Positions 2,159 through 6,723 of a stretch of 8,598 nt of DNA are shown here, piece by piece. The position numbers were made by a program, and so were the translations under genes. Below the pieces are notes generated by a model. The model was not told the DNA's origin, did not search any database, and saw only the letters and a list, made by a program, of their open reading frames with translations. The number at the start of each line of letters is the position of its first letter. Position 1 is the stretch's first letter. Source of the stretch: a virus (taxonomy: Duplodnaviria; Heunggongvirae; Uroviricota; Caudoviricetes); IMG/VR virus record IMGVR_UViG_2802429224_000018; one strand, 5' to 3'.

Positions 2159-3088
2159 TCAGTAGTTATGTATTGAAGGAGGTAATTCTTTATTCTTAAG
2201 TCTCATCCATGCGGAAAGATTCGTTGGTCCGTCTGGCTCATTGATATCAACATCTCGTGTGTGATTGATTAAAACGTCTCTCGCCATTCCGATAACATAC
2301 GAGAACTCATGACCATAGTCGTAGCATCTGCCGGAATAGTTCGATTGAATTTGTTTTAGCGCCGGATACAATTCGCGGAATAATGCCTGTGAGCGGTTGG
2401 CATAATCCCATAACCATACAAGACTGTTTGCTTCTTTTGCAGAAAGCTCGTTGGTTTTCTTATCTTGTTTGCCGATGAACTCTCCTTCAAGCGGAACGCG
2501 AGCAGCAAGTGACAGTGCTTCGGTAAACTGCTCCTCACTGATTTCTTTGTACGAACATCCAAAATGGGATTTCAGTGACGACCACATGGTGATCATCGCC
2601 TTAGCCTGTTTTTCTTTTGGCAGAGACTGACCGCGACTCATGACGAGTTGTTTAATGGCTTCCTGCTGTTCAGTGGTGATTTTACCCGGCAACGCCTTTT
2701 TAGCTTTGCGTGGGTTAACTACATGGCCTTTAGTCCAGTACTCGTATAGCACATCGTCACACTCTTCCTGATACTGGATTACCTTGTCGCGGATTTCAGG
2801 GCGGACTTTGTTAGGACTGATGGTTTGCAGCCAGCCAGCAAGTTTGCGAAGTGCCAAACAAATAATCTCACGGCACTGTTCATCACCAGGAAGCTGCATT
2901 GTGATTTTCACAATGGAGGTTTTAAACCGTTGCTTTATTTTCGTAAACTGTGAAGCCCAATCCATACCCATTCCCTCAACGATAGGTTTCATTGGGGTGT
3001 ACGGATCACCGTTGTGATTGACGACATAAAGCTCTGCGCCGTGGAATGGCACGTTGATAGTAGATACCGCTGTTGCTATACTTTTCAT
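2159..3088 (-). CDS. ant: Antirepressor Ant (P22 immI-type)
   Basis: 309-aa ORF, ATG at 3088-3086 with AGGAA 9 nt upstream, TGA at 2161-2159. It lies immediately downstream of an Arc-like gene and divergent from an Mnt-like gene, which is the canonical immI arrangement. The N-terminus ([23 protein letters not shown]...) is recalled as P22 Ant-like; P22 Ant is ~300 aa. Confidence 0.8.
3054..3082 (+). promoter_or_regulatory. Psar-like sigma70 promoter inside the first codons of ant, firing antisense
   Basis: TTGATA (3054-3059), a 17-bp spacer, then TATACT (3077-3082) on the plus strand. The predicted start near 3089 is directly opposite the ant start codon. Confidence 0.5.
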
Positions 3089-3160
3089 GTCAATATTTCC
3101 TAAGCCGATTTGTTGATACCGAAGCCCTGACTGTTACAGCAGTTGGGGCTTCACTGTTTT
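3089..3160 (+). ncRNA. sar: sar-like small antisense RNA complementary to the ant ribosome-binding site
   Basis: The Psar-like promoter upstream and an intrinsic terminator (hairpin 3121-3152 plus T-tract to 3160) bracket a ~70-nt transcript. It is fully complementary to the ant Shine-Dalgarno and leader (3089-3105). P22 sar is 68-69 nt with the same placement and orientation. Confidence 0.55.
3121..3160 (+). terminator. Intrinsic terminator of the sar-like RNA
   Basis: GAAGCCC (3121-3127) pairs with GGGCTTC (3146-3152); the stem can extend to ~13 bp with two G-U pairs around a 6-nt loop. It is followed by ACTGTTTTGATTTCTTT on the plus strand only; the minus-strand side is not U-rich. Confidence 0.55.
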
Positions 3161-3320
3161 GATTTCTTTGCCGCATCAAGCATCACTTCTGAAAACGTGC
3201 GCTTGCCACTGAATACTCTTTCTCTTCTCAATTTTTCGTTCGTGCCAAATGATTCGCCATGAACAAAATTTGGTCTCAAAATGGTAAGCGCAATCTCTTT
3301 GACTACTGCATCCAAGCAAA

Positions 3321-3461
3321 TCACACTGTTACCCCCTCCCTCTTCAGGCTGTCCAGCACCCGTTTAATTACTTCTGCGCTGAATGAGCGACACTCTTCCT
3401 TTGCTTTTTCTTCAAGAATTTTTTCTAGCTTCTCTGGCATACGCAGTGTTTTTACCTTCAT
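3321..3461 (-). CDS. arc: Arc-like ribbon-helix-helix repressor (46 aa); not present in the supplied ORF track
   Basis: Manual translation of the minus strand: ATG at 3461-3459 with GGAGGA 4-5 nt upstream, TGA at 3323-3321. Product is MKVKTLRMPEKLEKILEEKAKEECRSFSAEVIKRVLDSLKREGVTV, which aligns with P22 Arc as recalled (NLRWPREVLDLVRKVAEENGRSVNSEIYQRVMESFKKEG): L-R-x-P, A-x-E-x-x-R-S, E-x-x-x-R-V and K-x-E-G are conserved. It is upstream of ant and divergent from mnt. Confidence 0.8.
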   Translation of the reverse strand: MKVKTLRMPEKLEKILEEKAKEECRSFSAEVIKRVLDSLKREGVTV

Positions 3462-3480
3462 TGCATCCTCCGTTGTATGT

Positions 3481-3540
3481 GGTACGCATACATAGTATTT
3501 AGGTACGCATTGATAGTCAATAGATACCTACATATCCTGT
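3481..3540. promoter_or_regulatory. Divergent Pant/Pmnt promoter-operator region
   Basis: Minus strand (Pant): -35 TTGACT (plus 3520-3515), 17-bp spacer, -10 TACTAT (plus 3497-3492). Plus strand (Pmnt): -35 TTGATA (3510-3515), 17-bp spacer, -10 TATCCT (3533-3538). The two -35 boxes overlap within the palindromic core TTGATAGTCAA. Around it sits a 31-bp imperfect palindrome centred at 3515 (TAGGTA...TACCTA outer arms, 11 of 15 arm positions symmetric) and a 15-bp direct repeat GGTACGCATnnATAG at 3481-3495 and 3502-3516. Confidence 0.55.
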
Positions 3541-3566
3541 GGTAAAAAATTATTCAGGATGTGCCG

Positions 3567-3818
3567 ATGTCTGATCGTAAGTACAAAAACCCTCAAGTGA
3601 ATCTGAGGCTTCCTGTAGAGATAAAGGAACGTCTTATTGAACTGGCTGAGGCTAATTCTCGTTCATTAAATGCCGAGATGGTCGCGGCACTTGAAGCATG
3701 GACCGAAAAAAATAAACACATTCAAGCACTAGACCTTGCAACTATAGCATCACGATTGATAGATCTTGAACGCGATGTTGAGACGCTAAAGACCATGTAT
3801 GGTAAGGATGAAAAATGA
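3567..3818 (+). CDS. mnt: Mnt-like ribbon-helix-helix repressor (maintenance of lysogeny; represses Pant)
   Basis: ATG at 3567 with AGGA 7 nt upstream; the track's GTG at 3561 is too close to the SD. 83 aa, TGA at 3816-3818. NPQVNLRLPVEIKERLIELAEANSRSLNAEMVAALEAW aligns with P22 Mnt as recalled (PHFNFRMPMEVREKLKFRAEANGRSMNSELLQIVQDAL). Same length as P22 Mnt and divergent from arc. Confidence 0.85.
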   Translation: MSDRKYKNPQVNLRLPVEIKERLIELAEANSRSLNAEMVAALEAWTEKNKHIQALDLATIASRLIDLERDVETLKTMYGKDEK

Positions 3819-4024
3819 ACAAAAAACAGTTTATTAAGTCAACAACGTCAAGCAAGGAAGAGCTAGAGAAGGAGCTAAACTCCCTGAAATATGCTCTGTG
3901 CCTGGTTTACTCAAGACTGCCAATGGAAGATAAAAACGCCATTTACAATGAAATGATTAGCAGCCTTGATTTTAACGATAGAGACCTAGCATCCCACCTC
4001 AACAGCTTCCGCGTCCCTGAGTAA
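3815..4024 (+). CDS. Hypothetical 69-aa protein, translationally coupled to mnt
   Basis: Its ATG (3815-3817) overlaps the mnt TGA (3816-3818) in an ATGA junction; AAGGA 6 nt upstream; TAA at 4022-4024. Predicted soluble and helical; I recognise no family. Confidence 0.6.
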   Translation: MNKKQFIKSTTSSKEELEKELNSLKYALCLVYSRLPMEDKNAIYNEMISSLDFNDRDLASHLNSFRVPE

Positions 4025-4184
4025 TTCTGTTGCGGATTTGCTTCTTGCGGTGGTTTAAGCTGGAGAGCTTGGCTTCTGCTTCTGATATTTGTGCATCAAG
4101 ATCTTTAAGCTCAAGATCTGAAAGTCGCTGGTCAAGCAAGGTTTGGTTCAACTCAATGTTGTTCAGGCGTTCTTCTATGGTCAT
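3999..4184 (-). CDS. Hypothetical 61-aa charged coiled-coil protein
   Basis: ATG at 4184-4182 with AAGGTG ~5 nt upstream. Heptad-like, Leu/Glu/Asp/Lys-rich sequence (LNNIELNQTLLDQRLSDLELKDLDAQISEAEAKL). Its 3' end overlaps the 3' end of the 3815-4024 ORF by 26 nt. Could be a chance ORF. Confidence 0.35.
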   Translation of the reverse strand: MTIEERLNNIELNQTLLDQRLSDLELKDLDAQISEAEAKLSSLNHRKKQIRNRITQGRGSC

Positions 4185-4209
4185 ATTGTCACCTTAGTGG
4201 GAGGTTGGT

Positions 4210-4509
4210 GTGAAGCGATGGGTTATAGGTGCATTCTGTTTTCTAATTAGTGGTCTTGCACAATCGCAAGATAAGGATCTGAAATTTGCTAACGACATGT
4301 TAGTTACAGCTAAAGTTGCTGGCATGTGTGGAACATTTAAACAAATGTTTGCTTTTCAAGAAGCAACCCAGATGCCAGGCGGAGATGAATTTATTGAACG
4401 TTTTTTGAATACGGAAATTTCTCGCCTAGGGATGTCACTTCAAGAGTTCATGAAGTTGTGCACAGATTCTATAGAGTCATACAATAAATTAAAAAGGATG
4501 TCAGAATAG
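4210..4509 (+). CDS. Hypothetical secreted (signal-peptide) protein, 99 aa
   Basis: GTG start at 4210 with GGGAGG 5 nt upstream. N-terminus MKR-WVIGAFCFLISGLAQS-QDK has the n/h/c organisation of a Sec signal peptide; the mature part (~80 aa) is helical with two Cys. TAG at 4507-4509. No recognisable family. Confidence 0.6.
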   Translation: MKRWVIGAFCFLISGLAQSQDKDLKFANDMLVTAKVAGMCGTFKQMFAFQEATQMPGGDEFIERFLNTEISRLGMSLQEFMKLCTDSIESYNKLKRMSE

Positions 4510-4523
4510 CCATCCATGGCTAT
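4506..4523. repeat. Perfect inverted repeat ATAGCCAT-cc-ATGGCTAT (8-bp arms)
   Basis: Read directly from the sequence. It overlaps the stop codon of the 4210-4509 ORF and sits just upstream of the SD of the mini-ORF, between the convergent accessory cassette and the gp16-like gene. Confidence 0.35.
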
Positions 4524-4535
4524 CTGGAGGTTAAT

Positions 4536-4604
4536 ATGGTAACAATCGGTTGGATTATTGTTGCCCTGCTTGTTGCTCTGTGGGCAAAGAATCGTTACTA
4601 CTGA
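4536..4604 (+). CDS. Candidate 22-aa hydrophobic mini-protein ([22 protein letters not shown]); not in the ORF track
   Basis: ATG at 4536 preceded by GGAGG with a 6-nt spacer; a single predicted transmembrane helix with a basic/aromatic C-terminus; TGA at 4602-4604. Caveat: its last 50 nt are antisense to the 3' end of the gp16-like gene, and antisense of Gln/Glu-rich coding sequence tends to look hydrophobic. Confidence 0.25.
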   Translation: MVTIGWIIVALLVALWAKNRYY

Positions 4605-6723
4605 GAAAAGCGACAATACCAACGCGGGCTAGATTTTTCTTCTCGTCCGCTGATAGCGTATTTACCCAATCCCTATATGGTTTCACTTTCTGCATTGAAG
4701 CATCCACCGATTTCCTAGAGGCTGGGGTGCTGGCGTGACCTGCGGCAATCCTTTTTGAGAGATTTTTAAAAGCCGGAGATGCTATTAATTCATCAGCGGC
4801 AGCCATTCTTGAGTTTTTACCAGAACGGAGGAGGCTAAAGAGTACCCCTGCCGTACCGGCTCCAGGCGCTCCAATGGCTGTGGTTAGCCCTTCTGCTTTA
4901 GCCACGTCTTTTCCTATTCCATATATACGCCCAAGCATTCCCTTCTCTCCTGCGAACTGATTCATCATCCGGTCAATTTGAGAGGAGGAATACACCTTCT
5001 CGCTGCCCACCCTTTGCATGCCAGAAGCCACCTCATAGATGTTTCTCAACCTACGCGTAGCCGGATAGCCAATTGCCCGGCTCAATGCCTGCATATTTGA
5101 TTTGTTTCTTGATAGCCCTTCATACCACTTAACAAACCCAGGAACACCAAGTGACTGCCCGGGAGATTTAGCGAACGTAGTGAAAGCCCTATTCATTGCG
5201 GTGGCAACAGCTGGTTGCACCATGTCATCAGGAAGATTTGAAACTAGGCGACGGAAGTCACCTCCCTTTCCTTGAGACATATCGACGATAGCTTGCTGTA
5301 ATTGCGGCACTATTCCTTTATCCAAGTCTCTGCCAAGATTTTGAACAGCGGCTGCCTGTACTGCGAATCTCTTTCTCCCGATCTCTCTAGCTAAATTCCA
5401 TGTATCCTCTGCACCATATTTGGCAGCAGCGGCTCCCTGATCTTGTATCAGTGCGCTTTCAATAATTCCAAGGTGCCGAGCGTCGATGCCGCTATATGGC
5501 CCTTTATCCATCTCTTTGCCAAGAGCCCTTCCAACCTGTCGTCGAACTGCATCAAGAAGACCATAAGTCGGGGCGGTGTTTGGGTCTATTTGTTCCAAGG
5601 TCTTTGACAGTTGAGGATATAGCGATTTTAGTTTTTCTAGCCCACCGACATCATCTGCAATATCCTCAATGGCGTTAGTGGTATGGGTGGTATCTACGGT
5701 AGCTCTTGTTGGAATTTTTGCTCTAATTTGATTGTATAGAGTGTCTTCTTGGCGCTTCAGGTTTGATCTTAACTCCTCATAAGAGCTTTTTACCTTTTGA
5801 TTGATAAAGTCCTTATCAACGCTCCCACCAAAATCATTAATAAATTTATCTGCCTGCTCTCCAAGCCTACTAATGGCCTCTCGCTGTGCGTGGAACAGTT
5901 TATTCCCTGGGGTTGCAGCTAAAGCATTTTCAAACGCGCGGTAAGAAGGGTTGCTGGAGTACATGCCGGGAGTTAAGGCATCTTCCATCCCAAGATTGCG
6001 GGCGGCCTGTAGCACAGAATCATCTGGTGAAACAGCTTTCGCGAGAGCATTTAAACCAGATCTGTTTCCTGTTATTGGATTCACATCTGTAGCTTTCGTT
6101 GCAACCCTCGCCATTCCACTAAGTTCAGATGCCTGAGACATTTCTGCCGATGGAGGCTTAAACCTCTTCGTAACCGCACTGGCTGCTTTGCTAATCACTG
6201 GAGATGCCAATTCAGCAATTGGACCAGCGGCAGCACCTATAGCCGCCCCTGTAGTTACATTGCCACCGGTTCCGTTAGCAACAACACCACCTTCAACAGC
6301 GCCAAGCCCTGCGGCGGCAGCCAGCCTTGCCGCCCCTTTCGGAACCTGAGAAATAATCCCACCACCACTAACAAATGGCGCTGCTTGTCCAACAAACTCA
6401 CCAACATCTTGTGCGGTTGATGGTTTTGCCGCTAACTTCTGCTGTAGAGACTGAATTGCGGCTTGCTCTTCTGGTGTCATATCCTGAAACAGGCCAACAC
6501 CTTTACCAATATCCATCAATCCACTGAGAACACCATACATAAAACGGTCGAAACCGTTAGCATTATTAACAACATTTTCCTGTCTGGAATTTTCCTCTGG
6601 CGAAACCAAAGGTGATTGCTGCTGTTCTGGTTGGGCATCAAGCACAAAACCATCAGGAAGCTGTGAGTTATCAGGCTGATTATCGAGAACAAAGCCTTCG
6701 GGTAAACCTACATCGGTTGCCAT
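4555..6723 (-). CDS. Ejection (DNA-transfer) protein, P22 gp16-like
   Basis: 722-aa ORF, ATG at 6723 with AGGAA 7 nt upstream, TAA at 4557-4555. It is the third of three consecutive late genes directly upstream of the immI module, matching the P22 order 7-20-16-(sieA)-mnt-arc-ant-9. Ala/Gly-rich internal stretches. The start overlaps the preceding gene's stop by 16 nt. Confidence 0.75.

Follow-up and report, generated by a model that had tools for sequence, protein, structure and literature searches.

A candidate 22-codon gene for a single-helix membrane protein, antisense to the end of an ejection-protein gene in the immI region of P22-like prophages

Short open reading frames that run antisense into a structural gene are easily taken for by-products of that gene, and the immI region of P22-like prophages raises this question in a compact form: is a 22-codon ORF lying across the 3' end of the gene at the gp16 position a gene of its own or an accident of the opposite strand? 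The DNA analysed here, called the window, is a stretch of 8,598 nucleotides from a virus of the Caudoviricetes (IMG/VR record IMGVR_UViG_2802429224_000018). The region in question is immI of a P22-like (Lederbergvirus) prophage, and it matches phage Kapi1, as well as a handful of E. coli prophages, at ~98% identity. The minus strand carries the genes for gp7 (PF25688), gp20 (PF16928) and a 722-aa gp16-position protein as well as arc, ant and the tailspike gene, and the plus-strand genes mnt-like, orf69, orf99 and the mini-ORF converge on gp16. The features needed below are these:

3561-3818, plus strand: mnt-like gene
3815-4024, plus strand: orf69
3999-4184, minus strand: 61-aa coiled-coil-like ORF (phrog_7586)
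4210-4509, plus strand: orf99 (phrog_19844), secreted product, for which the Kapi1 annotation has a DeepTMHMM note; signal peptide present
4506-4523, no strand: palindrome ATAGCCATCCATGGCTAT, with its core AGCCATCCATGGC at 4508-4520; small hairpin and mosaic module boundary
4526-4530, plus strand: Shine-Dalgarno sequence GGAGG, followed by the spacer TTAAT, 5 nt to the ATG
4536-4604, plus strand: mini-ORF, 22 codons and TGA (translation)
4555-4604, minus strand: overlap with the mini-ORF, 50 nt, the last 16 gp16 codons and the stop
4555-6723, minus strand: gp16-position gene, 722 aa, TAA stop at 4555-4557

The initial annotation had pointed to this ORF of 22 codons, and its position and translation were confirmed, while the spacer between GGAGG and ATG, given there as 6 nt, has 5. 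Residues 1-17 of the product are uncharged and are followed by a basic and aromatic C-terminal tail, KNRYY. The palindrome ATAGCCATCCATGGCTAT includes the TAG stop codon of the upstream gene, and the ATG of the mini-ORF lies 12 nt past the hairpin that ends this gene, which is an operon-like layout. As had been noticed, the ORF escapes annotation: neither Kapi1 nor the RefSeq E. coli prophages have it annotated. Taken as a pattern alone, the start signal plus ORF does not exceed chance. The window holds two GGAGG-N4-9-ATG sites (the mini-ORF and arc) against 1.45 expected in Markov simulations, a figure that falls to 0.53 when an ORF of 20 aa or more has to follow. Regarding RNA, nothing exceptional was seen in the fold of 4490-4620 (z=-1.4), and whether the ribosome-binding site is partly paired depends on the context; no Rfam family was found over the mini-ORF region and no intrinsic terminator 3' of the mini-ORF.

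Two other possibilities for the mini-ORF were considered and rejected. A promoter of its own was discarded because there are only 12 nt from the palindrome to the ATG and the sequence 5' of the palindrome varies between contexts, and a leader-peptide or attenuator role was discarded because no gene follows on the same strand. In the window, the probable co-transcription partner is orf99, since a promoter would not fit between the two, and diverged orf99 homologues are found upstream of the mini-ORF variants A, B and E described below. The orf99 family (phrog_19844) comprises secreted proteins of ~100 aa with a conserved GMCGTFKQM...QMPGGDEF motif (window, L044, L086, L135, L138 and L141), and its members precede the mini-ORF, a 75-aa gene, a 161-aa lipoprotein gene (phrog_6067) or gp16 directly. 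Between orf69 and orf99, the phrog_7586 ORF of the minus strand overlaps the 3' end of orf69 and starts only ~25 nt from the start of orf99; in Kapi1 a longer, XhlA-like version is annotated. In the RNA-seq paper on the Kapi1 lysogen, mnt was reported as not expressed and the mini-ORF locus was not resolved. A literature search found no Ribo-seq or proteomics for this prophage.

The gene that the mini-ORF runs into was called gp16-like in the initial annotation. This name stands by synteny only, as the gene follows gp7 and gp20; the protein belongs to phrog_6704 and has no Pfam match of its own. The P22_gp16 family (PF26808), which matches the L135 and L142 alleles, does not match the window allele. 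The protein is also mosaic when the window (4555-6723) is compared with L027 (97-2253): an N-terminal stretch is near-identical between the alleles that accompany mini-ORF types A and C, identity is only 44% over the last 250 residues and 53% over the entire protein (378/716). With the TAA of gp16 at 4555-4557, the overlap is 50 nt. The start and the Shine-Dalgarno sequence had been placed outside gp16 and the body antisense to its C-terminal codons; the start signal is indeed outside, and so are the first six codons, which leaves the last 50 nt of the ORF as the antisense part.

The end of gp16 itself is not constant. The overlap measures 50, 50, 35, 32 and 47 nt in the mini-ORF types A to E because the gp16 stop moves, and past a conserved ARxGxxxWL the tails of gp16 are hydrophilic, differ in length and bear no relation to one another. 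In EC.P3-type relatives, which are without the mini-ORF, gp16 ends 11-16 residues earlier (...WLASDS*). Because the tail is variable, the stop moves and the relatives end earlier, gp16 is taken to read into the antisense of a real small gene. The simplest reading of these sequences would be that the gp16 C-terminal tail is a dispensable extension that reads on to the first stop, and not that the mini-ORF is a by-product of gp16.

To follow the ORF beyond the window, comparison loci were fetched with orf99, gp16 C-terminus and DNA patterns. They contain five diverged versions of 21-22 aa:

Type A (window, Kapi1 and others): begins MVT[IV]G[WS]
Type B (L044)
Type C (Salmonella phage S.Kent 1-2-1 and E. 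coli prophages): MVTVGWIIAFLIAFWVGRHWL
Type D (L080, L081 and L083): MVTVGWIISFLVTSFGRRHWL
Type E (L086): 21 aa

The ATG and the stop (codon 22 or 23) are kept in 5/5, and all versions have a purine-rich site 5-8 nt before the ATG (GGAGG, GGAGG, GGAG, AAGG). The linker from the palindrome to the ATG is unconserved save for this ribosome-binding site, conservation restarts exactly at the ATG, and the first eight codons are highly conserved in nucleotides. The A/B and C/D/E groups are separated by a 3-nt indel which preserves the frame. Kapi1 and six related contigs (L005, L009, L018, L019, L033 and L037) have TCG (Ser) for TGG (Trp) at codon 6, window positions 4551-4553; this W6S change of Kapi1 alters a GWII motif that is invariant in every other version.

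The way in which the two frames are phased makes the overlap informative. Position 2 of the mini-ORF codons pairs with the gp16 wobble position and position 3 with gp16 position 2, and therefore the two frames predict opposite substitution sites. Selection was examined on two independent pairs, A-B and C-E, in which the body of gp16 has a protein identity of ~77% and ~75%, respectively, with pS of 0.74-0.78 and pN/pS of about 0.2. In the overlap, 10/17 substitutions fall on gp16 position 2, which is the wobble position of the mini-ORF, versus a share of 13.6% in the gp16 body (binomial p=1.6e-5), and gp16 wobble sites differ at 4/31 versus ~57% in the gp16 body (Fisher p=9e-7). In the mini-ORF frame pN/pS is 0.26 and 0.31 for the two pairs and 0.28 pooled (Fisher p=0.0025), the substitution counts being small (17 and 19) and coming from two independent pairs only; in the gp16 tail frame of A-B it is 0.59. 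Taken by itself, the three-position periodicity departs only weakly from a fully neutral model (p about 0.08), and the lower overall divergence of the region could be due in part to more recent recombination in a mosaic locus. Judged from these substitution patterns, purifying selection acts in the mini-ORF's own frame. The check proposed in the initial annotation, conservation of ATG, Shine-Dalgarno sequence and frame in homologous prophages, comes out in favour of the ORF in all five versions, the pN/pS of variant D being an exception.

In this variant (L080 3531-3596, L081 and L083), eight nonsynonymous changes relative to type C are clustered in codons 9-17, pN/pS is 1.25, the Hessa value is +1.1 and the predicted membrane propensity is lost. 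The adjacent gp16 is ~98% identical to that of type C (pS 0.08), which suggests either a local patch or a double frameshift that was compensated. The prophages that carry it have an IS256-family insertion (L080) or a gp16 deletion (L081), and the ribosome-binding site reads GGGG in L081/L083.

Concerning the product, the best 16-aa Kyte-Doolittle mean of the mini-ORF is 2.51; in the rest of gp16, the 329 stop-free windows of this antisense phase reach 1.83 at most. The hydrophobicity of the helix is not what the antisense strand of gp16 yields in general. Across the variants residues 1-17 have a mean of 2.2-2.5 (2.46 for the 17-residue uncharged stretch of the window mini-ORF), types A, B, C and E give position-independent Hessa sums between -1.2 and -2.3 kcal/mol, and the C-terminal tail has a net charge of +1 to +2. 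One transmembrane helix is predicted for the product. By the positive-inside rule, its topology would be N-out, C-in, with the KNRYY/GRHWL tail in the cytoplasm and aromatic residues at both interfaces. Residues G5, A9/A10 and A13/A14 may form a small-residue face typical of helix-helix packing, and the protein would then probably work by packing against another membrane protein. The reading as a small membrane protein, put forward when the ORF was first noticed, is supported, since frame, start, ribosome-binding site and hydrophobicity are conserved among the five versions.

Comparable small proteins are known in E. coli. AcrZ, MgrB, MgtS and KdpF, as well as the toxins IbsA-E and ShoB, have fewer than 50 aa, a single hydrophobic helix and an aromatic or basic cytoplasmic end, and small inner-membrane proteins and type I toxins of that class are routinely missed by annotation. 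The mini-ORF differs from them in that it is prophage-borne, overlaps a convergent structural gene and has no family match: no profile of Pfam, NCBIfam, PHROG or PADLOC matched any variant at or near the curated threshold. The peptide strings were not found in a literature search, nor were small prophage membrane proteins in superinfection exclusion at the mini-ORF locus. With the peptides as tblastn queries, the only matches in 50,697 phage records were Kapi1 and Salmonella phage S.Kent 1-2-1, and a degenerate back-translated pattern gave only chance matches in unrelated taxa among 185,579 species-representative genomes. The metagenome scan with the degenerate pattern gave one type-A copy. 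The pattern also found a 37-aa hydrophobic ORF, preceded by GGAGG and starting with MVTVGWII, in L082 (1052-1165; IMG/VR contig 3300032007_004072, 148 kb); this contig is from an unrelated large phage and the likeness is probably a coincidence.

The place of the mini-ORF in the prophage becomes clearer when the junctions are compared. Homology between prophages breaks, on either side, at the palindrome ATAGCCATCCATGGCTAT. In L012 and L013, orf99 is joined to other gp16 alleles without the mini-ORF, and in L020/L030 the mini-ORF and its gp16 are joined to other upstream genes; these swapped joins across the palindrome indicate that the mini-ORF belongs to the gp16-side module. Among 46 IMG/VR loci of this gp16 family, 20 have the mini-ORF and ~23 have instead a gene for a 75-aa two-helix membrane protein (phrog_7294). 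In L138-140 this 75-aa gene, which is called, starts from TAG-palindrome-GGCTATCAGGAGGTT-N4-ATG. The order there is an orf99 homologue, TAG-CCGTCCTTGGCTATCAGGAGGTTGCGATG and the 75-aa gene, and the window counterpart is TAG-CCATCCATGGCTATCTGGAGGTTAATATG, with the same palindrome and GGAGGTT ribosome-binding context; the GGCTATCNGGAGGTT context is found upstream of the annotated 75-aa gene in L138 as at the mini-ORF. In L199 the same initiation context starts a 41-aa single-helix ORF beside a P22-type gp16.

The proteins that share this slot can be compared with the mini-protein. The 75-aa gene (L028 2217-2444; L138 2821-3048; ~23 IMG/VR loci, L104-L130) overlaps the gp16 stop by 4 nt and is about as frequent as the mini-ORF in this gp16 family. 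In the EC.P3/E212-type prophages its product has in common with the mini-protein the position from palindrome to gp16 stop, the overlap with this stop and the initiation region shared in L138, but it is three times longer, with a second helix and a charged tail; gene callers do annotate it, and it presents no detectable sequence homology. The 41-aa ORF MITNIILWIIFAVLVTISVQLSNVTKLLRSIDAKNDETRPD of L199 (5705-5830, minus strand; IMG/VR contig 3300013953_000020) has the slot and the initiation context, and its helix shares WII-x-A-x-LV with the mini-protein. It differs by a 22-residue polar C-terminal tail, a P22-type gp16 and the lack of a gp16 overlap, and its homology is uncertain. By its sequence it may be a longer relative; a tblastn gave no match for it in the phage collection. 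A search of IMG/VR with the palindrome-plus-GGAG pattern returned mostly chance matches, plus L199.

As for the joints themselves, the palindrome starts at the stop codon of whichever cassette gene is upstream, and the same motif (core GCCRTCCNTGGC) makes up the 22-nt intergenic region between sieA and gene 16 in P22 (L134, about 815-836). Its role may be that of a recombination boundary or of a 3'-end hairpin; as no T-run comes after it, it does not qualify as a classical terminator. Another junction, GGAGGTTGGTGTG, is conserved as well; AAGCGATKG (V-K-R-W/L) often comes next, and this junction provides the ribosome-binding site and the start of unrelated cassette genes (window 4197-4218; L027 2505-2540; L028 2435-2470; L134 1320-1350; L199 5825-5845). 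The genes begun by it are orf99, a YobH-family gene, the 75-aa membrane protein gene, the 41-aa ORF and P22 sieA. The region behaves as a site of cassette exchange would, its 5' and 3' joints staying fixed.

The type-C loci connect this slot with sieA. In them, ~115 nt before the first cistron are near-identical to the promoter and ribosome-binding region annotated for sieA of P22, and an operon of a YobH-like gene, hairpin and mini-ORF stands in place of sieA; the window, of type A, does not share this promoter region. SieA of P22 is an inner-membrane protein, expressed from the prophage, which blocks DNA delivery (Leavitt et al., mBio 2024, PMC10883804), and mutations that escape it fall within the C-terminal parts of gp16 and gp20 (PMC10883804). 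It shares with the mini-protein the convergent slot abutting gene 16, the GCCRTCCNTGGC intergenic motif and the inner-membrane location, which for the mini-protein is predicted. On the other hand, SieA has ~164 aa, several transmembrane helices and a cytoplasmic FxRYPxEAxxFNK motif (PMC10883804), and the mini-protein has 21-22 aa, one helix and no sequence similarity to it. Of the features of the SieA family, the mini-protein thus has the convergent immI location and lacks the size (about 160-200 aa), the several helices and the motif.

Considering all these data, the mini-ORF is probably a real, translated terminal cistron of the sieA-side operon, which would make an inner-membrane microprotein. 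It would close the leftward immI transcription unit, the one in which sieA is found in P22, and would lie on the other strand from the late operon. It would be translated from its own Shine-Dalgarno sequence right after the hairpin which ends the upstream envelope-protein gene, and its 3' two-thirds would be overprinted by the dispensable C-terminal extension of the convergent ejection-protein gene. The conservation and the selection are seen directly in the mini-ORF frame; translation, membrane insertion, expression from the prophage and function are inferred.

Other explanations have to be weighed against this one. It is improbable that there is no gene and that the ORF is a product of chance or of the antisense strand, its conservation being that of a non-coding boundary sequence for module exchange or the result of a recent recombination of the patch. 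The simulations agree with such a reading, as a ribosome-binding site plus ORF of this size is expected 0.53 times per window, and ~36% of the 22-codon windows that lie in the mini-ORF's antisense phase across gp16 have no stop; a mosaic junction is plain at the palindrome, which is conserved even in P22, and variant D has a pN/pS above 1. However, the enrichment of substitutions at the mini-ORF wobble position is independent of divergence time (p=1.6e-5), pN/pS is 0.28 with a frame-preserving indel, the ribosome-binding site is kept within an unconserved linker, the hydrophobicity is above that of every same-phase antisense window in gp16, and the same site drives annotated genes elsewhere. 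The caution that the ORF could be an antisense artefact is therefore largely refuted, the substitutions following the mini-ORF codon positions and the gp16 tail being variable and absent in relatives. It is very unlikely that the ORF makes a type I toxin-like peptide, which would damage the membrane and whose mRNA would be neutralised by the fully complementary gp16 3' transcript of the late operon or by an unrecognised antisense RNA. With 22 aa it is a small hydrophobic membrane peptide, as such toxins are; its size and composition are like those of Ibs and Sho-class toxins such as IbsC, the ribosome-binding site is strong, and the gene order means that the antisense late mRNA necessarily covers the ORF during lytic growth. 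Nevertheless, this late transcript would be missing in the lysogen, where a toxin needs restraint, and a dedicated antisense or divergent RNA with its own promoter was not found: a consensus scan of 3000-5200, which is weak evidence, gave no promoter-like minus-strand site downstream of the ORF. A long structured 5' leader is absent, as the ORF lies 12 nt past the hairpin and the fold has z=-1.4; there is no Rfam match, and in relatives the slot holds ordinary small membrane protein genes. The toxin-like alternative of the initial annotation hence found no specific support in this operon-like arrangement.

The act of translation, and not the peptide, could also be what matters: ribosomes carried beyond the hairpin would set the point inside gp16 at which Rho terminates the convergent transcript or would stabilise the upstream mRNA, or antisense pairing would modulate expression of the gp16 3' end. 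The operon-terminal position running into a convergent gene, with no intrinsic terminator found downstream, would suit this role, and so would the nucleotide conservation of the eight 5' codons, but purifying selection on amino acids and a hydrophobic, aromatic character maintained across differing nucleotides are not needed for it, and it is slightly less probable than a toxin. Least probable of all is a decaying remnant of a longer slot gene of the 41-aa or 75-aa type, shortened as the gp16 module became attached. Mosaicism in the slot is high and the 41-aa protein of L199 shares M-x-T...WII-x-A-x-LV with the mini-protein, yet the length of 21-22 aa, the start and the stop are stable across lineages in which gp16 synonymous sites are saturated, and a pN/pS of 0.28 indicates a maintained function.

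If the mini-ORF is a real gene, the favoured role, suggested by its position only, is superinfection exclusion of P22-like phages or another accessory role at the envelope level, which is possible but rather unlikely; exclusion would act at the step of DNA delivery through the inner membrane. More doubtful is that the peptide is a minimal superinfection-exclusion or injection-blocking factor, in which one helix would sit beside or inside the gp16/gp20 conduit of incoming P22-like phages and block genome entry. The linkage of the mini-ORF to gp16 alleles is forced by their physical overlap and is therefore uninformative on function. If true, the injection-blocking peptide would be by far the smallest such protein, and would belong, with the 41-aa and 75-aa proteins and SieA, to a group of small membrane proteins that replace one another in a single recombination slot by the ejection-protein gene.

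Few phage small membrane proteins have been characterised, and the mini-ORF has a clean comparative selection signature despite its overlap with a structural gene. For the family of ejection proteins encoded on the other strand, the annotated C-terminal tail is probably a read-through passenger, which matters for comparisons of the gp16 C-terminus, the region of the SieA-escape mutations. Moreover, since codons 1-6 are outside gp16, the mini-ORF can be knocked out with the ejection protein untouched, and it gives a handle on whether very small helices mediate prophage defence or envelope remodelling.
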